This document shows positions 700 through 19,305 of a DNA stretch of 20,723 bases, in pieces. The stretch lies in UHGV virus genome UHGV-0278151; one strand, given 5' to 3'. Position numbers and translations under genes: made by a program. How positions within the stretch are numbered: position 1 is the first letter of the stretch; each line of letters starts with the position of its first letter. A model generated the notes under the pieces. The model was not told where the DNA came from, searched no databases, and worked only from the letters and a program-made list of their open reading frames with translations. This DNA comes from a virus.

Positions 700-3275
700 C
701 GTCCACCTCCGGAGAACAGGCCACCATCACGCATCTGTGTCTGAATTTCATCACGGGCACCCTTGCGGGCCATGTCATACACCGCCTTCAGAGCAGCCGG
801 ACCTATCTGCCCGTTCGTGCCGTCGTTGTTAATCACCACATGGTTATTCTGCTCAAACGTCCCGGACGCCTGCGACCGGCTGTCTGCCATGCTGCCCGGT
901 GTACCGACATAACCGCCGGTGGCATAGCCGCGCATCAGCCGGTAAAGATTCCCCACGCCAATCCGGCTGGTTGCCTCCTTCGTGAAGACAAATTCACCAC
1001 GGTGAACAATCCCCGCTGGCTCATATTTGCCGCCGGTTCCCGTAAATCCTCCGGTTGCAAAATGGAATTTCGCCGCAGCGGCCTGAATGGCTGTACCGCC
1101 TGACGCGGATGCGCCGCCACCAACAGCCCCGCCAATGGCGCTGCCGATACTCCCGACAATCCCCACCATTGCCTGCTTAAGCAGAATTTCTGTCATCATG
1201 GACAGCACGGAACGGGTGAAGCTGCGCCAGTTCTGCTCACTGCCGGTCAGCATCGCCGCCATATTCTGTGCAATACCATCAAAGGTCTGCGTGGCTGCAC
1301 TTTTTACCTGCGACATACTGTCCGTGGCGCTCTCTTCCCACTCACTCCAGCCGGACTTCAGGCCTGCCATCCAGCTCCCGCGAAGCTGGTCTTCAGCCGC
1401 CCAGGTCTTTTTCTGCTCTGACATGACGTTATTCAGCGCCAGCGGATTATCGCCATACTGTTCCTTCAGGCGCTGTTCCGTGGCTTCCCGTTCTGCCTGC
1501 CGGTCAGTCAGCCCCCGGCTTTTCGCATCAATGGCGGCCCGTTTTGCCCGTTGCTGCTGTGCGAATTTATCCGCCTGCTGCGCCAGCGCGTTCAGGCGCT
1601 CCTGATACGTAACCTTGTCGCCAAGTGCAGCCAGCTGGCGTTTGTACTCCAGCGTCTCATCTTTATGCGCCAGCAGGGATTTCTCCTGTGCAGACAGCTG
1701 GCGACGTTGCGCCGCCTCCTCCAGTACCGCGAACTGGCTCTCCGCCTTCCACAAATCCCGGCGCTGCTGGCTGATTTTCTCATTTGCTCCGGCATGCTTC
1801 TCCAGCGTCCGGAGTTCAGCCTGAAGCGTCAGCAGGGCAGCATGAGCACTGTCTTCCTGACGATCGCCCGCAGACACCTTCACGCCGGACTGTTTCGGCT
1901 TTTTCAGCGTCGCTTCATAATCCTTTTTCGCCGCCGCCATCAGCGTGTTGTAATCCGCCTGCAGGATTTTCCCGTCTTTCAGTGCCTTGTTCAGTTCTTC
2001 CTGACGGGCGGTATATTTCTCCAGCGGCGTCTGCAGCCGTTCGTAAGCCTTCTGCGCCTCTTCGGTATATTTCAGCCGTGATGCCTCAGACTCGGCCCAG
2101 TCCTTTGCTGCCATCTCTCTGGCCTTTTCAAGATCGGCCTGCAACGTGGCGGCTGAAAGCCCAAGTTGCGCATTCGCTCTGTCCTCCCATGCTCCCCGGA
2201 GATTGGCAAGAAATGCTGAGGTTTTACCGCGCCGGTGGCTCCGGCTCTGATACCACTGCCATTTTTTGTCCGCCTCATCAAAAGCCTTTTCTGCTTTCTC
2301 CAGCATTCCCTGGGCAGTGTCCGGGCGACCAATATCCAGCACCGAATCCCACATGGATTTGAATGCCCGTGCTGTCCTGTCTGCCCAGGTCTCCAGCGTG
2401 CCCATGTTCTCTTTCAGGCGGCGGGTCTGGTCATCAAACCCTTTCGTTGCGGCCTCGTTCGCCGCCTGCAATGCCCCGGCTTCATCTCCGGAACGCTGCA
2501 ACTGAGCAACATACGCAATCTGCTCCGCCGTCACGTTATGGAACTGACGTGCCATCGCTGTCAGTCCCGACGTCGGGTCTGTGGTCAGCTTCCCGAAGGC
2601 TTCAGCGACCTTGTCCACCTCCACGCCGGATGCAGAGGAGAAACGCGCCACACTCTGGCTGATCGCCTCAAACTGCTCACCACCACGCACACCGGCATTC
2701 ACCAGCGCCGTCAGTGACTCGCTGGTCTGGTTAAACGTCAGCCCTGCCGCCTGCCCGGCTCTGGACAGGACCAGCATACGATCTGCCGTCAGTCCCGCCT
2801 GATTGCCGGAAAGGACCAGCGTTTTGTTGAAATCGGACAGGGTTGAGTTGCCCTGATACCAGGCATACGCCAGCGCACCGGTCGCCACCGCCAGCGAGGT
2901 GGCCCCCACCATCGGCAGGGTGATCGCACCGGCAAGCCCCCTGAACATGGGGATCATCCCGCCGAAGGAGTCCTTAACCTGACCCCCCTGTTGCAGCAGG
3001 ATCAGCCACGGGCTTTGCCCGCCTGCAAGCTGCGTGGCCACGTCGGTGAACTGTGCAGGCAGCATACGCATGGCGGCTTTATACTGCCCGACGGAAATCC
3101 CCGCTTTCTGTGCAGCCAGCGCCTGTCGGCTCAGCGACTGTTCAACGACTGCCGCTGTTTTTTTCGCATCAGTTTCCGTACCGGAAAAATGACGCCTGAC
3201 TCTGGCCATCTGCTCGTCAAATCTGGCCGCATCCAGACTCAAATCAACGACCAGATCGCCTACCGGTTCAGCCAT
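696..3275 (-). CDS. H: Tail tape measure protein H
   Basis: 859 aa (lambda gpH is 853 aa). The N- and C-terminal thirds are nearly identical to lambda H as I recall it (MAEPVGDLVVDLSLDAARFDEQ... ...QTQMRDGGLFSGGGR). The start overlaps the T stop by 8 nt as in lambda. Confidence 0.95.
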   Translation of the reverse strand: MAEPVGDLVVDLSLDAARFDEQMARVRRHFSGTETDAKKTAAVVEQSLSRQALAAQKAGISVGQYKAAMRMLPAQFTDVATQLAGGQSPWLILLQQGGQVKDSFGGMIPMFRGLAGAITLPMVGATSLAVATGALAYAWYQGNSTLSDFNKTLVLSGNQAGLTADRMLVLSRAGQAAGLTFNQTSESLTALVNAGVRGGEQFEAISQSVARFSSASGVEVDKVAEAFGKLTTDPTSGLTAMARQFHNVTAEQIAYVAQLQRSGDEAGALQAANEAATKGFDDQTRRLKENMGTLETWADRTARAFKSMWDSVLDIGRPDTAQGMLEKAEKAFDEADKKWQWYQSRSHRRGKTSAFLANLRGAWEDRANAQLGLSAATLQADLEKAREMAAKDWAESEASRLKYTEEAQKAYERLQTPLEKYTARQEELNKALKDGKILQADYNTLMAAAKKDYEATLKKPKQSGVKVSAGDRQEDSAHAALLTLQAELRTLEKHAGANEKISQQRRDLWKAESQFAVLEEAAQRRQLSAQEKSLLAHKDETLEYKRQLAALGDKVTYQERLNALAQQADKFAQQQRAKRAAIDAKSRGLTDRQAEREATEQRLKEQYGDNPLALNNVMSEQKKTWAAEDQLRGSWMAGLKSGWSEWEESATDSMSQVKSAATQTFDGIAQNMAAMLTGSEQNWRSFTRSVLSMMTEILLKQAMVGIVGSIGSAIGGAVGGGASASGGTAIQAAAAKFHFATGGFTGTGGKYEPAGIVHRGEFVFTKEATSRIGVGNLYRLMRGYATGGYVGTPGSMADSRSQASGTFEQNNHVVINNDGTNGQIGPAALKAVYDMARKGARDEIQTQMRDGGLFSGGGR

Positions 3276-9396: not shown

Positions 9397-13077
<3,681 letters not shown>

Positions 13078-16002: not shown

Positions 16003-16155
16003 TTATTCAGATTTACGCAGTAAAGGCCGGAGCACGACCAGCGCCATCGCCACCAGCACACCATCTGCCAGCACCGACATCAGCCGTCCGGTGAAATCCA
16101 CCACCACTACCAGAAACAGCAGGATGGCAGCCAGCACAAGGCGCGCACTTTTCAC
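16003..16155 (-). CDS. Small two-TM membrane protein (50 aa) translationally coupled to the TerB-like gene
   Basis: It is not in the ORF track (under 60 aa). The GTG at 16155 overlaps the TerB-like stop (CTGTGA), with GGAG 8 nt upstream. The product is VKSARLVLAAILLFLVVVVDFTGRLMSVLADGVLVAMALVVLRPLLRKSE*, with two clear hydrophobic helices and a basic tail. Confidence 0.55.
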   Translation of the reverse strand: MKSARLVLAAILLFLVVVVDFTGRLMSVLADGVLVAMALVVLRPLLRKSE

Positions 16156-16577
16156 AGGTACTGCTCCAGCGGCAACTGCAACGCCTGTGCAATTTTCTTG
16201 AGCTGCACTTCTTCATCAGGACCGATGCCGTCCTGGTCAGCAATATCCAGACACAGACACAGCACGTTAACTGCATCATCAGTACCGGCAACATCAGCCA
16301 GCTGACGAAGGGCTTCGGCATTGGCAGAACGCGGTGACGCTTCATAACGGGCGCGGATATTTGCACTCATTTGTGCAATCTCACCCGAGAACGGCGCAAA
16401 GGCAGGAAGTGCTGCAATGGTTTTCTCCAGCACAGCGATTTCTTTCGCATCACAGGTGCCGTCGGCGAATGCTATGGAATACGCACCCCAGACGGTCGCC
16501 TCCACTGCATCGCGGTTCTCCATCTTCTTCACTTCGGTAATGGCCTTGCGGGTTTTCTTTTTGAAAATACCAAACAT
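16152..16577 (-). CDS. TerB-like (tellurite-resistance TerB fold) protein
   Basis: 141 aa, MFGIFKKKTRKAITEV...GAYSIAFADGTCDAKEIAVLEKTI...LCLCLDIADQDGIGPDEEVQLKKIAQALQLPLEQYL. It has the two A-x-ADG-x-x-D/E-x-x-E repeats and the N-terminal MSFF/MFGIF-K motif of TerB. An AAGGA SD precedes the ATG at 16577. Confidence 0.7.
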   Translation of the reverse strand: MFGIFKKKTRKAITEVKKMENRDAVEATVWGAYSIAFADGTCDAKEIAVLEKTIAALPAFAPFSGEIAQMSANIRARYEASPRSANAEALRQLADVAGTDDAVNVLCLCLDIADQDGIGPDEEVQLKKIAQALQLPLEQYL

Positions 16578-16596
16578 CGTGACTTTTCCTTTTAGT

Positions 16597-16681
16597 GGGT
16601 GAGCCTGCGCCCGGGGGTGACCAGCCCACAGAGAAAGTCACACTGACCATCCCGTAAGCTCACCCCTGAAAGGCTCTGTGG
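16597..16681 (-). promoter_or_regulatory. Structured 5' leader of the TerB-like gene (two interleaved 8-bp GC-rich helices)
   Basis: Helix A pairs 16626-16633 (ccacagag) with 16674-16681 (ctctgtgg). Helix B pairs 16597-16604 (gggtgagc) with 16658-16665 (gctcaccc). The arms interleave (B-left, A-left, B-right, A-right), so they form either a pseudoknot or mutually exclusive folds. They end about 10 nt from the SD. Confidence 0.5.
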
Positions 16682-16788
16682 TTTTTGATGTGCGCCGGGC
16701 GTGGCGCAAAGAAATGAAATAAGACTTACCTGAAATTAAGGTTAATCTGAGGATTTAAACCATTTTTAAAGCTTAGTAATATCAACTC

Positions 16789-16867
16789 GTCTCCTGAAGG
16801 AGACAGATACTTATGATTCTTCATGGACTTTGTCCCGCGGCGTTAATCCGACGGCCGCGCTTTTTTT
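16789..16867 (+). ncRNA. Candidate plus-strand small RNA (about 80 nt) antisense to the late-operon direction
   Basis: TTTAAA (16754-16759), a 17-nt spacer and TAATAT (16777-16782) form a promoter-like signal. The predicted transcript has a 5' hairpin GTCTCC-tgaa-GGAGAC (16789-16804) and a terminator CGCGGC-12nt-GCCGCG-C-TTTTTTT (16836-16867). Confidence 0.45.
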
Positions 16868-16902
16868 GCGCCATATTCATCGCTAACTTACATGGCATTG
16901 CC

Positions 16903-16937
16903 ACACGGGCATTATCAGTGTCCGTGTTTCTTTTTTT
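16903..16937 (+). terminator. Second plus-strand intrinsic terminator
   Basis: ACACGG-13nt-CCGTGT followed by TTCTTTTTTT. Confidence 0.6.
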
Positions 16938-16949
16938 AGGATTCAGAAT

Positions 16950-16974
16950 AAAAAAAACCGCCCGGTGGAGGCGG
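16950..16974 (-). terminator. Minus-strand intrinsic terminator downstream of the tRNA-like gene
   Basis: The minus strand reads CCGCC-tccaccg-GGCGG followed by TTTTTTTT. It is convergent with the two plus-strand terminators. Confidence 0.75.
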
Positions 16975-17242
16975 TAAAGGATGTATTTCCAGGTTTTGCT
17001 TAATATATGAATAATCTCAATGTCATGGTGTTATTTACAACACCAGAATGATGCATCACCGACCCTGCCAGGAAATATAAAATCTCCGCCGAAAATGCAC
17101 CATTCTGCTGCCGTAAAAAAATCAGCACTGCGGCTACACCCGACCCCAAATCATAGCCAGAGAACAGAATGTTTTTAACAATCTACCCCCACGTAATAAA
17201 AAAATACGTCAGTGCCGTCACTATAAGGCGTATTTCAAATGT

Positions 17243-17318
<76 letters not shown>

Positions 17319-17446
17319 TTTTATTGCCACATCCGTAACAACAGTCGACAGGAATAATATACATTCAGAATCAGCCGCCTTAGCTAATTGTGCAACCATC
17401 TGCTCTTTGCAAGTGCACTTAACGTCCTGCGCCACTTTTCAGGCAT

Positions 17447-17469
17447 AAAAAAACCCGCTCAGTGGCGGG
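17447..17469 (-). terminator. Intrinsic terminator (copy A of a 25-bp repeated terminator)
   Basis: The minus strand reads CCCGC-cactga-GCGGG-TTTTTTT. A second 8-bp hairpin (AAGGCACC-attaa-GGTGCCTT, 17490-17510) lies just upstream on the same transcript. Confidence 0.75.
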
Positions 17470-17482
17470 ATCTTTTGATAAA

Positions 17483-17594
17483 AACGACAAAGGCACCATT
17501 AAGGTGCCTTTTACACAGGGGCAGCAGGCTTGTCATCACCTCATCGCTACTCCTGGCTTCCTGTTCGGAAGTCTCACAAGTCCCATCAGGGTAC
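17483..17594 (-). ncRNA. Candidate small RNA (about 85-145 nt) from the TTGACA/GATACT promoter to the tandem terminators
   Basis: The predicted start is near 17594. The transcript has an internal hairpin CTTCC-gaaca-GGAAG, then the 17510-17490 hairpin with a U-rich tail, then the 17469-17447 terminator. There is no convincing ORF, only ATG AGG TGA and a 25-codon frame with a poor SD. Confidence 0.4.
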
Positions 17595-17600
17595 AGCGAC

Positions 17601-17629
17601 AGTATCAGCCAACACACTATGTGTGTCAA
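17601..17629 (-). promoter_or_regulatory. Strong sigma70-type promoter TTGACA-17-GATACT
   Basis: The minus strand reads TATA TTGACA cacatagtgtgttggct GATACT gtcgctg. The hexamers are those of lambda pL. The spacer contains the inverted repeat ACACAC-tat-GTGTGT. A perfect palindrome ATCGAATTCGAT (17641-17652) and a 10-bp hairpin lie upstream. Confidence 0.6.
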
Positions 17630-17664
17630 TATAAATTCATATCGAATTCGATAATCGTTTTCGA

Positions 17665-18066
17665 TTATCGATACAGATAAGCCATCCCTATCCCGTGCAA
17701 TACCGCCCGTTTAATATTCTCAAACTCATCTTCCGCAATCATAGGAACAATATAATTTCGTCCCTCCCAGGTTCTGGTTTTTATGCGATCCAGTCGGCTC
17801 AATGAAACCGTCATCAACATGTCACATTTTACCCAGCAAGTAATATGCTCATTACCAGGTATGGGGTTTTCTGATAACTCATGATGGCAATCTCTGCGAG
17901 GGAGCGGTTCAGTAGTGCTTATTGGTACCACTGTTACCAATTGATTGTTGTGCCTGTTTCTGGACACGACCACCACTGGCCTGACCTTGACTATTTCCGG
18001 AACAACCATTCCCCGAAAATCACACATTAAAACAGAACGAACAGACGGCTGATACTTTAATACCAT
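17665..18066 (-). CDS. PemK/MazF-fold toxin-like protein (YifN-like), with no adjacent antitoxin gene
   Basis: 133 aa from the ATG at 18066: MVLKYQPSVRSVLMCDFRGMVVPEIVKVRPVVVVSRNRHNNQLVTVVPISTTEPLPRRDCHHEL...WVKCDMLMTVSLSRLDRIK. This is the MazF/PemK signature (G/S-x-L-x-x-DF ... E-x-x-K-x-RP-x-VV-S ... V-x-VVP-x-ST ... D-x-x-x-TV). The SD is weak (AAGAGA). Confidence 0.7.
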   Translation of the reverse strand: MVLKYQPSVRSVLMCDFRGMVVPEIVKVRPVVVVSRNRHNNQLVTVVPISTTEPLPRRDCHHELSENPIPGNEHITCWVKCDMLMTVSLSRLDRIKTRTWEGRNYIVPMIAEDEFENIKRAVLHGIGMAYLYR

Positions 18067-18170
18067 AAATCTCTTTGCCTGATAATGACGACTTGTGAAC
18101 TCCACTACAAACAAAATGATTCTGCTGAACAGGCAGTTTCGCACTATACATTATAACCTGTTAAGCCAAC

Positions 18171-18193
18171 AAAAAAACCCGCTCGGCGGCGGG
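18171..18193 (-). terminator. Intrinsic terminator (copy B); candidate tR' about 50-70 nt downstream of the candidate late promoter
   Basis: The minus strand reads CCCGC-cgccga-GCGGG-TTTTTTT. It matches copy A at 17447-17469 in 23 of 25 positions, and the two differences lie in the loop. Confidence 0.75.
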
Positions 18194-18247
18194 ATTTGCT
18201 TACTTTGCCATCGAGTACAAAATCGGCAAAATATCAGATTTGCACGA

Positions 18248-18276
18248 AATATATGCCTTTTAATCTACTTTTGCAA
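18248..18276 (-). promoter_or_regulatory. Candidate late promoter pR' overlapping the 3' end of the Q-like gene
   Basis: The minus strand has TTGCAA (18276-18271), a 17-nt spacer and TATATT (18253-18248). The predicted +1 is the A at 18241. The initial transcribed region contains cTGaTATTTT, a -10-like element of the kind that causes sigma70-dependent pausing at lambdoid pR' promoters. Confidence 0.5.
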
Positions 18277-18949
18277 CACTTTGCTTTGAAAATGCCGTCT
18301 TTTGTTCTGAACGTGTTCTCATCACAAACAATAAAGCCTCACTATCCAGCCGGTGGAAAATGTGTTTCATTGCAACCCAGTGACCAGTAAATGTTTTGGA
18401 CCAGTTTTTTGTTGTTACTCCCGCCAGTAATGCCAGTTCCTGATATTCATAAGTTTCACGCCCAGCTAGCTCACTCTTCACATCCTGTGCCGCCAGCCAG
18501 ATTAATTTTTTCAGGCGCTCCCGTGTTTTCTCCGCAATTTTTCTGGTACCAGATTGCGCGTTAAATTCATTCCACGCCCACTGTGTTATCGCAATCTGGT
18601 GTTCCCAGCAAATGCTGCCGCTGTAACACCACAGCAACCAGGCTTTATAGTGTTCTTCAAGAGACAGAACCGCCCGTCGCCATGATGATGTCGAAAACTC
18701 AACCTGACTTACCAGAGGAATTGACGTCCTCTTTGCCAGCGATTGTTTCCCCGGGATTGGTGGATTATCCCGCGTTATCATTTTTCCGGTCACTTCATCG
18801 CGGTACCGGATTTTTTTACGCCTGTAACGCCCTGTATCAAACATGGCATTCTCCTGCCAGGCTTCAAGCTGACCTTTTGTTGCCCCACTCAAATCGGCGG
18901 TGGCAATAATGAGCTGCTCACGAACAAACTGTAAATACTGGTTATTCAT
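18260..18949 (-). CDS. Late-gene antiterminator Q, QuuQ-like long form (229 aa)
   Basis: It sits directly after rusA with an ATGA stop/start overlap at 18946-18949, and GGAG lies 5 nt upstream. A promoter and terminator follow it. The size and the DUF968-Q adjacency match Qin ydfU-quuQ. The sequence is MNNQYLQFVREQLIIATADLSGATKGQLEAWQENAMFD...EEHYKAWLLWCYSGS... The family assignment is from memory and position only. Confidence 0.55.
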   Translation of the reverse strand: MNNQYLQFVREQLIIATADLSGATKGQLEAWQENAMFDTGRYRRKKIRYRDEVTGKMITRDNPPIPGKQSLAKRTSIPLVSQVEFSTSSWRRAVLSLEEHYKAWLLWCYSGSICWEHQIAITQWAWNEFNAQSGTRKIAEKTRERLKKLIWLAAQDVKSELAGRETYEYQELALLAGVTTKNWSKTFTGHWVAMKHIFHRLDSEALLFVMRTRSEQKTAFSKQSVAKVD

Positions 18950-19305
18950 GCGCACTCCAGCCCTGTGATTTTTATCCCCAACCGACCACCAGGAACGACC
19001 TGACCGCGCACAATATTGATTTCATCAAACTGCTCGTCGTCGATAAGCAGTCCCGCATACGTCAGCGCATCCAGCGGTGCTTTCAGAATATTGTCCAGGT
19101 CACGACGGCGCTTATCCGGCGGCTCTGCAATGATCTTTATCGCCAGCCTTCCGGACAGGTTTAATTTCAGCCGCTGCTGGCGAACAATAAGCGCCACATC
19201 ACGGCGATAACGCTCACCGGCTTTTGATACAAAATATGTGCTGCCACGACGACGCCAGTAGGTGTTCACCGTCGGCGGGTAAGGCAAAACAAACTCTATA
19301 CGCAT
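18946..19305 (-). CDS. rusA: Holliday junction resolvase RusA
   Basis: 119 aa, MRIEFVLPYPPTVNTYWRRRGSTYFVSKAGERYRRDVALIV...PPDKRRRDLDNILKAPLDALTYAGLLIDDEQ... It carries the conserved P-P-S/T-x-N-x-Y and DRRRRDLDN motifs of RusA. Confidence 0.9.
   Translation of the reverse strand: MRIEFVLPYPPTVNTYWRRRGSTYFVSKAGERYRRDVALIVRQQRLKLNLSGRLAIKIIAEPPDKRRRDLDNILKAPLDALTYAGLLIDDEQFDEINIVRGQVVPGGRLGIKITGLECA

Follow-up and report, generated by a model that had tools for sequence, protein, structure and literature searches.

The gene and the RNA at the locus

The window analysed here, the whole 20,723-nucleotide stretch of UHGV virus genome UHGV-0278151, is a lambdoid prophage of Escherichia coli. On its minus strand, DUF968, RusA and the antitermination gene Q are followed by a promoter-like site, a terminator (t1), a gene for a PemK/MazF-family protein of 133 residues, a structured RNA of about 113 nt, a tRNA-Gly fragment, TerB, holins and endolysin. 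This report concerns the PemK-like gene and the RNA directly behind it (Table 1), the latter being a strong candidate for a new RNA antitoxin. The part of the window that spans both (17200–18300) is 100% identical to strains EC21Z-048 and GPEC79-13-647 and 99.9% identical to SE11.

Table 1. Coordinates of the features at and around the gene–RNA locus, numbered as in the window
Feature	Position	Strand	Details
133-residue PemK/MazF-fold protein (predicted fold), 'YifN-like' clade	17665..18066	-	Pfam PF02452 (PemK_toxin), E = 5.6e-14
5′ untranslated region (UTR) stretch GUCAUUAUC	18081..18089	-	-23 to -15 from ATG; can pair with RNA GGUGAUGAC (17540-17532)
494-bp block missing from PemK-less sister prophages	17622..18115	-	holds 5′ UTR, PemK-like gene, palindromes and -35 hexamer
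Palindromes between stop codon and -35	17641..17671		ATCGAATTCGAT at 17641-17652; 10-bp inverted repeat 17648-17657/17662-17671
Sigma-70 promoter of the RNA	17601..17629	-	-35 TTGACA 17629-17624, 17-nt spacer, -10 GATACT 17606-17601
Structured RNA, about 113 nt	17480..17594	-	covariance model R1 matches 17593-17482, 110 bits
RNA P1	17591-17582	-	
RNA single-stranded stretch ACUUGUGAGAC	17581-17571	-	
RNA P2	17571-17557	-	
RNA P3	17555-17516	-	3-4-bp apical stem closes loop GAUGACAA (17537-17530)
RNA terminator hairpin	17511-17489	-	tail GUCGUUUUU at 17488-17480
Second intrinsic terminator, t3	17447..17471	-	CCCGCCACTGAGCGGG at 17469-17454, plus T7, T-run to 17447
Terminator t1	18171..18195	-	directly 3′ of Q and the candidate late promoter
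Candidate late promoter pR′ of Q	18248..18276	-	TTGCAA-17-TATATT, 9/12 consensus matches, overlaps Q stop
Antitermination protein Q	18260..18955	-	Pfam PF06323, E = 1.2e-93; RefSeq annotation

The 133-residue protein, which RefSeq annotates as a PemK/MazF family toxin, is predicted to adopt the MazF fold. Its AlphaFold2 model has a predicted local distance difference test (pLDDT) score of 90.8, and the top Foldseek matches of this model in the PDB are the MazF proteins of Staphylococcus aureus, Bacillus subtilis and Mycobacterium tuberculosis, at template modelling (TM) scores of 0.67–0.80 and 14–21% identity. Across 31 family members, the positions that we take, from an alignment by eye, to correspond to E24, R29 and T52 of E. 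coli MazF show full or almost full conservation. The protein drew no hits in NCBIfam, in PADLOC or in a sequence search of the PDB, and a scan of genome contigs with this single protein gave one marginal match of 25 residues.

The first-pass annotation of this DNA had described the gene as one of MazF fold without a protein antitoxin, and the wider survey agrees. No open reading frame (ORF) for a protein antitoxin adjoins the gene in the window or in the RefSeq annotation, and 110 nt of non-coding leader lie upstream of it. Nor was a MazE-like gene seen beside the PemK-like gene in the contexts examined (Enterobacter, Klebsiella, Xenorhabdus, Pseudomonas, Geobacter and others). Among these contexts, locus L054 alone has an Arc-like gene, 228 nt upstream; the neighbours in other lineages are Q genes, unrelated genes or nothing. 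The integrase-bearing element of L054 that holds the PemK-like gene and the RNA also carries an int-alpA RNA (1210–1277, minus strand; Rfam RF02996, 57.6 bits).

A structured RNA with its own promoter and terminator

The promoter of the RNA matches the sigma-70 consensus at 10 of 12 positions and ranks first among the nine promoter-like sites in 16500–19000 (shuffle mean 4.1); transcription would start near 17594. A promoter with its -35 and -10 elements 17 nt apart precedes the RNA at an equal distance in Enterobacter, Klebsiella, Xenorhabdus, Arsenophonus, Geobacter and diverse metagenome loci, although promoter counts across loci are taken as qualitative only, the automated count being unreliable.

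The promoter, the U-tailed hairpin, the second terminator and the palindromes had all been listed by the first-pass annotation, and each was found, on the minus strand, where it had put it. Its further proposal that the palindromes are operators fails on comparison. The promoter spacer holds ACACAC-ata-GTGTGT, and the hairpin with the 10-bp stem spans the PemK-like stop codon (17667–17665); these two and the 12-bp palindrome occur in the E. coli version only, whereas Enterobacter, Klebsiella, Xenorhabdus and others have the same -35 and -10 hexamers amid unrelated intergenic and spacer sequence. A perfect 10-nt inverted repeat between the -10 region of the RNA promoter (17601–17610) and codons 4–7 of the PemK-like gene (18047–18056) is likewise E. 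coli-specific, with about 0.4 such matches expected by chance per 900 nt.

A transcript of about 85–145 nt with two terminators had been envisaged. The first of these stands: the hairpin (arms AAAGGCACC/GGTGCCTTT, then GTCGTTTTT, with the U-tail reaching 17480) and its tail are the family's conserved part, and the functional 3′ end of the RNA is most likely here, at about 113 nt. The second terminator (17469–17447) has to be taken out of the RNA. It is a repeat of t1, and the two form 25-nt direct repeats that are 92% identical and 724 bp apart, with weaker similarity for some 12 nt beyond. In the PemK-less prophages L002 and L004 t3 is kept, and in the Enterobacter and Xenorhabdus modules it is not present; it belongs to the prophage backbone and not to the RNA family. 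The t1 and t3 repeats bracket the PemK-like gene and the RNA, and may be footprints of module entry or substrates for module loss.

The minimum free energy fold of 17594–17478 reaches −43.9 kcal/mol (z = −4.2, 200 shuffles) and consists of P1, P2, P3 and the terminator hairpin. In 22 diverse copies, aligned with MAFFT and fitted to no structure, 96% of alignment cells pair within P2, P3 and the apical stem, against 81% after shuffling (a level reached by 0 of 500 shuffles) and 37–49% when the structure is slid along the alignment; cells with double changes number 48, against 12.5 expected. An alignment of 36 copies to the covariance model, protein-first copies (see below) included, is biased towards that model; within it, pairing holds in 98.4% of cells, and compensatory changes are seen at 15 of the 16 pairs. 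We conclude that the RNA is genuine and structured, with three covarying helices, and this covariation implies selection on structure beyond the terminator hairpin. The parts that are nearly invariant in sequence are the single-stranded 5′ segment GGGCUUG..A.AC, the apical loop GAU-N-ACAAG and the tail UUUGU(C).

R1 finds one copy of the RNA in the window, and every locus holds a single unit, never an array; in agreement with the first-pass annotation, Tandem Repeats Finder detected no tandem repeats in 17300–18300. At the gathering threshold, a scan of the window against Rfam 15 returned a tRNA fragment only, and a permissive scan of 17380–17700 gave just terminator-like noise (E of about 0.1 or more). 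Rfam scans of the Pseudomonas and metagenome copies returned nothing, literal strings of the RNA sequence retrieved no paper, and no prior description was found in the literature. The RNA family is new to Rfam.

Other identities for the segment were considered and rejected. A conserved small ORF is incompatible with frames that differ among genera through insertions and deletions in the P2 loop and P3, the frame in Xenorhabdus stopping after 7 codons and that in Geobacter having no ATG. The earlier proposal, in which the promoter drives a separate structured RNA that encodes no protein, is supported. A pseudoknot between 5′ GCUUGU and loop ACAAGC would be complementary in most copies, but the variants CUAGU, CCAGU and CCUGU are uncompensated. 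An element like an integron attC site would have end-to-end dyad symmetry or occur in arrays, and the RNA shows neither.

Linkage of the RNA to the PemK-like clade

Viewed from the protein side, adjacency of the RNA is near-obligate for this clade. A protein profile yielded 80 loci on viral contigs (the protein-first set, 37–100% identity), which were scanned with R1; the RNA adjoins the gene in 66 of them, and in 45 of the 46 with at least 50% identity. Nearly all of these matches begin 10–80 nt past the stop codon on the same strand, two being convergent with the gene. In a sampling of lineages by the exact protein, the RNA was present in 11 of 13, namely E. coli, Enterobacter, Klebsiella, Xenorhabdus, Arsenophonus, Pseudomonas, Geobacter, Alcanivorax, two alphaproteobacteria and one metagenome contig. 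The linked lineages thus cover gamma-, delta- and alphaproteobacteria and include both prophage and chromosomal loci. That segment 17483–17594 is conserved, covaries and travels with homologues of the PemK-like gene, which had been suggested as a check on the original prediction, is what these two samples show, together with the covariation described above.

The arrangement around the pair is conserved over a wide range of protein identity. In the Enterobacter, Klebsiella and Xenorhabdus homologues (65–79% identity), the gene lies directly after Q, or in one case after Mu Mor, and the Q genes concerned belong to three different Pfam families. Within 1–45 nt, these homologues are followed by TTGAC(A/T)-17-(A/G)ATA(C/A)T and then by the same RNA, with hairpin loops that differ. 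The same order of gene, promoter and RNA is seen in Arsenophonus, on a Pseudomonas chromosome without nearby phage genes (53% identity), on a metagenome contig (55%), in Geobacter (49%) and in two alphaproteobacteria (40–42%), one of which has the module between dnaN and recF. In Alcanivorax (42% identity), the RNA is on the opposite strand and convergent with the gene.

A more distant PemK-like gene is the yifN pseudogene of E. coli K-12. R1 has no match in this region. Directly after yifN, between it and ppiC (L056; NC_000913 3959814–3960011, minus strand), stands TTGACA-17-GATAAT, followed by a hairpin-rich stretch of about 75 nt that ends in a terminator and has no non-coding RNA annotated; this stretch may be an analogous but divergent partner RNA.

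A candidate antitoxin for a solitary MazF-fold protein

We propose a module of two parts, in which a gene for a solitary putative endoribonuclease of MazF/PemK fold is accompanied by a separately transcribed structured RNA. With a near-consensus sigma-70 promoter and an intrinsic terminator of its own, the RNA would be made constitutively and in excess. The P3 stem closes the nearly invariant apical loop GAU-N-ACAAG, and the RNA would act as the cognate neutralising partner of the RNase, binding the protein as a pseudo-substrate or decoy. Such an antitoxin would be type III-like in logic, yet single-copy and non-repetitive; in the enterobacterial versions, base pairing between the RNA and the toxin 5′ UTR may be added to this. 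The toxicity of the protein, its binding by the RNA and its neutralisation are all presumed in this scheme. Four features of the locus fit direct binding, whether the RNA neutralises the RNase or is put to use by it: adjacency seen from the protein is near-obligate, a protein antitoxin is absent, the promoter is strong and dedicated, and an invariant ACA loop sits on a covarying stem. We put the idea forward tentatively, as the likeliest of the explanations considered, with a good though not a better-than-even prospect of being right.

In its widest form, the proposal would be that of an undescribed class of toxin–antitoxin (TA) system, spread over alpha-, gamma- and deltaproteobacteria and their prophages, in which a MazF-family endoribonuclease is neutralised by the single-copy GAU-N-ACAAG RNA and not by MazE; orphan copies of the RNA would then be anti-toxin immunity genes, or landing pads for other RNase-toxin cassettes. 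This broader claim is possible but more doubtful. To our knowledge, MazF toxins are a textbook type II family that has always been described with a protein antitoxin. If the proposal is true, a widespread MazF clade travelling with a structured RNA would form a link between type II and type III, and many genes annotated as orphan 'type II PemK/MazF toxins' would be accounted for; the RNA family would be an addition to Rfam.

Several observations weigh against a neutralising role. In contrast to known type III antitoxins, the RNA lacks repeats and is encoded 3′ of the toxin gene. It is missing from two distant members of the clade (39–42% identity), in which the near-invariant Arg-Pro of the protein is aligned as Arg-Arg. 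The metagenome set was chosen by two motifs of the RNA, so the invariance of those motifs there is partly circular. The RNA is also found without the gene. A survey of 5,426 complete E. coli genomes finds the RNA segment in 36 and the 494-bp block in 24, where it abuts the segment every time, which leaves 12 of the 36 with the RNA and no gene. The 31 informative viral contigs with the 5′ motif of the RNA divide into 20 with the gene directly upstream and 11 that are gene-less. Of 77 metagenome loci confirmed by R1, 44 have the gene upstream and 7 have too little upstream sequence, so that 26 of the remaining 70 are gene-less. Pseudomonas-type copies without the gene score as high with R1 as gene-linked ones, which suggests a function independent of the gene. 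Finally, 14 of the 26 RNA-only metagenome loci hold another RNase-toxin module, or a remnant of one, in the same upstream position and orientation, so an insertion hot spot could account for part of the adjacency. The modules concerned consist of a Gp49/HigB-like killer plus its PF21716 antidote, of shortened antidotes that abut the RNA, or of BrnT. Since the RNA also occurs without the gene, the link is one-sided: either acting as an antitoxin is not the RNA's only role, or orphan copies persist.

A possible independent function of the RNA

The alternative that survives best is that the RNA acts independently, as a trans-acting small RNA or in some other way, and has no direct functional tie to the protein, its gene serving as a homology anchor or hot spot just upstream of which RNase-toxin cassettes, the PemK-like gene among them, land repeatedly. 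RNA-only loci are common and, in Pseudomonas-type sequences, apparently intact. One Pseudomonas chromosomal site (LysR ... RNA ... lipoprotein/ketoacyl synthase) always keeps the RNA but changes what lies upstream of it: a PemK-like gene, a Gp49-like killer paired with an HI1420-type antidote, a shortened antidote that abuts the RNA, DUF6124 or nothing. BrnT cassettes stand before the RNA on a plasmid-like contig with a Rep3 replicon, PemK-less variants have their breakpoints at the promoter or the 5′ end of the RNA, and the moron site 3′ of PR′ is known to harbour a class of small RNA genes (PMC4104026).

Against this independence stands, first, the link seen from the protein side, with the RNA beside the gene at 45 of 46 loci of at least 50% identity. 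Hitch-hiking alone should not keep the two side by side where protein identity falls to 40%, in different proteobacterial classes, in unrelated genomic contexts and after a flip in orientation, and yet adjacency persists behind three families of Q, behind Mu Mor, at the Pseudomonas chromosomal site, between dnaN and recF, and in the flipped Alcanivorax pair. HigBA and BrnTA are very large families, of which only RNA-adjacent members were seen here. Furthermore, enterobacterial copies of the RNA decay after gene loss: all five gene-less variants in enterobacterial prophages have lost the -35 or the whole promoter and bear lesions in P3 or the loop (among them P3 insertions and deletions, loop ACA to GCA, and ACAAG to ACAGG), and they score 90.8–106.4 bits with R1, against 106–114 bits for gene-linked copies. 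We regard an RNA wholly independent of the protein as unlikely, though as a serious competitor to the RNA antitoxin.

The loci occupied by other toxin modules are of interest in their own right. In Pseudomonas-type metagenome loci, the RNA follows the pair of Gp49/HigB-like killer and PF21716 antidote, and in other loci it follows an antidote gene cut after about 50–64 codons at the 5′ edge of the RNA (L069, L082, L106, L107, L121 and L135; also L062, L063, L079, L105, L120 and L128), which points to recurrent recombination at the 5′ boundary of the RNA. The Rep3-replicon, plasmid-like contig L101 has two copies of the RNA (177–285 and 11232–11340), of which at least the second lies directly downstream of a gene for a BrnT ribonuclease toxin (PF04365) that is itself followed by an ORF of 78 residues; L067 (1146–1254) has the same BrnT arrangement.

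Less likely alternatives: pairing with the toxin 5′ UTR, or a late-leader by-product

A second alternative is a type I-like mechanism, in which the apical loop of the RNA would bind the 5′ UTR of the toxin message, so as to block translation or trigger decay. In E. coli, the two can form 9 bp, two of them G-U, at the place homologous to the enterobacterial site described next. In the modules of Enterobacter, Klebsiella and relatives (L008/L013/L030/L083-type), 11–13 contiguous nucleotides at -25 are complementary, the UTR UUGUCAUCACC(A) facing (U)GGUGAUGACAA of the apical region; the pairs are Watson–Crick apart from one G-U in L083, and only 0–7 of 200 shuffles attain this length. Comparable complementarity is absent from Xenorhabdus, Pseudomonas, Geobacter and most metagenome modules, and over 52 distinct modules the longest UTR match averages 8.1 nt, against 7.1 nt in shuffled sequence. 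Duplex energies between the whole RNA and the 5′ UTR are no better than those of shuffles (z from +1.7 to −1.8), and an invariant loop faces 5′ UTRs that vary. As the complementarity is striking in the Enterobacter/Klebsiella clade, weaker in E. coli and absent from most other lineages, antisense control is unlikely to be the conserved mechanism, and we consider a type I-like system improbable.

The remaining alternative would make the segment a mere leader or terminator of the late operon, a by-product of Q antitermination of the 6S/StxS type, with a promoter created by accident at an insertion junction. Its basis lies in PemK-less relatives. In the sister prophage L002, window positions 18276–18116 are joined straight to 17621–17419, so that the -10 and the RNA remain; the -35 hexamer thus belongs to the block in which the two prophages differ. 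L004 has a Q of lambda type and a lambda-like pR′ (TTGATT-17-TAAATT) followed by a pause sequence, AACGATGGG; here and in the similar L033, the RNA lies within the pR′ leader and has no promoter of its own. Short transcripts from PR′ can, moreover, be functional small RNAs (PMC7547250). This explanation is nonetheless very improbable, as the same -35, spacing and -10 precede the RNA in distant genera and outside prophages, which rules against a junction accident, the RNA family occurs in non-phage chromosomes, and the covariation reflects structural selection beyond the terminator hairpin.

Comparison with known systems

The candidate RNA antitoxin invites comparison, first of all, with type III TA systems (ToxIN, CptIN and TenpIN). 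Shared features are a protein of endoribonuclease type that lacks a protein antitoxin and lies beside a small non-coding RNA gene, frequent carriage by phages and other mobile elements, an RNA expected in excess, and the presentation by that RNA of a motif (ACA) resembling a toxin recognition site. Unlike a type III antitoxin, which is an array of tandem direct repeats encoded upstream of the toxin in one operon with a terminator between them, the present RNA is single-copy and structured, and is located downstream with its own promoter. The protein also differs in being a member of the PemK/MazF Pfam family, outside the ToxN, CptN and TenpN families, with MazF and not ToxN as its nearest structures, and in drawing no PADLOC hit. 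With the type II systems MazEF, PemIK and Kid–Kis, the module shares the predicted fold of the toxin and, in the by-eye alignment, what we take to be the catalytic Glu, Arg and Ser/Thr positions of MazF; it differs from MazEF and PemIK in having no adjacent, co-transcribed MazE/PemI-like gene in the contexts examined.

Type I systems that combine an enzyme toxin with a trans-acting small RNA antitoxin include RalR/RalA, from the rac prophage, and SymE/SymR. They resemble the present module in that a prophage-borne enzyme toxin lies beside a small RNA, with short complementarity to the toxin mRNA in enteric bacteria. In the present module, however, this complementarity is restricted to one lineage, the RNA is not encoded antisense to the gene, and its conserved parts do not track the mRNA. 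The pemK RNA motif of Rfam, a candidate cis-regulator located before the pemK genes of Firmicutes, is another conserved RNA associated with PemK-family genes. It sits in the 5′ UTR, whereas the RNA described here is 3′ of the gene, independently transcribed, proteobacterial and without an Rfam match.

Among phage small RNAs, AgvB and AsxR share with the present RNA a location behind a moron coding sequence that itself follows Q and PR′ (PMC4104026). They measure 51–60 nt, against about 113 nt here, and the conserved 3′ region that AgvB and AsxR have in common finds no counterpart, since neither Rfam nor sequence comparison gives a match. In PemK-less relatives, the RNA is part of a PR′-terminated leader, as StxS is (PMC7547250). 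In the window, by contrast with lambda 6S and StxS, the RNA starts about 650 nt past the candidate pR′, after t1 and the PemK-like gene, and from its own promoter. Homology to the lambda 6S/pR′ leader was considered and rejected, as no sequence similarity is visible by eye and only the L004 promoter resembles lambda pR′. The RNA family also extends far beyond lambdoid phages, unlike the moron-site small RNAs and PR′ leaders.

The prophage setting

The TTGCAA-17-TATATT site that overlaps the end of Q is probably pR′; it is also present in L002 and L003, and a -10-like GATATT lies within the early transcribed region that it would produce. The block from the 3′ end of Q through t1 (18300–18169) accompanies this type of Q in PPompW and Stx prophages, from which we infer that it is a Q-pR′-tR′ unit and that all beyond t1 sits in the moron site. 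This site tolerates insertions and holds small RNA genes (PMC4104026). Gene and RNA together form a moron within the late leader that follows Q, and this Q-controlled position, found also in prophages of Shiga-toxigenic E. coli, suggests a role in superinfection exclusion or in shutting off the host at the time of lysis.

Behind the module, the tRNA fragment (17254–17311, minus strand) matches positions 8–63 of the Rfam tRNA model with 48.5 bits, and ARAGORN calls no tRNA gene there. It resembles the tRNA-Gly of other lambdoid phages and is a remnant of the tRNA cluster that stands behind the late leader in relatives (tRNA-Arg, -Thr and -Gly in L004). Around 16152–16577 (minus strand), a TerB-family gene and a DUF3927 gene lie between the late leader and the holins. 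In SE11, the same prophage has hokD upstream of the DUF968-RusA-Q block (compare L001, 3335–3490).

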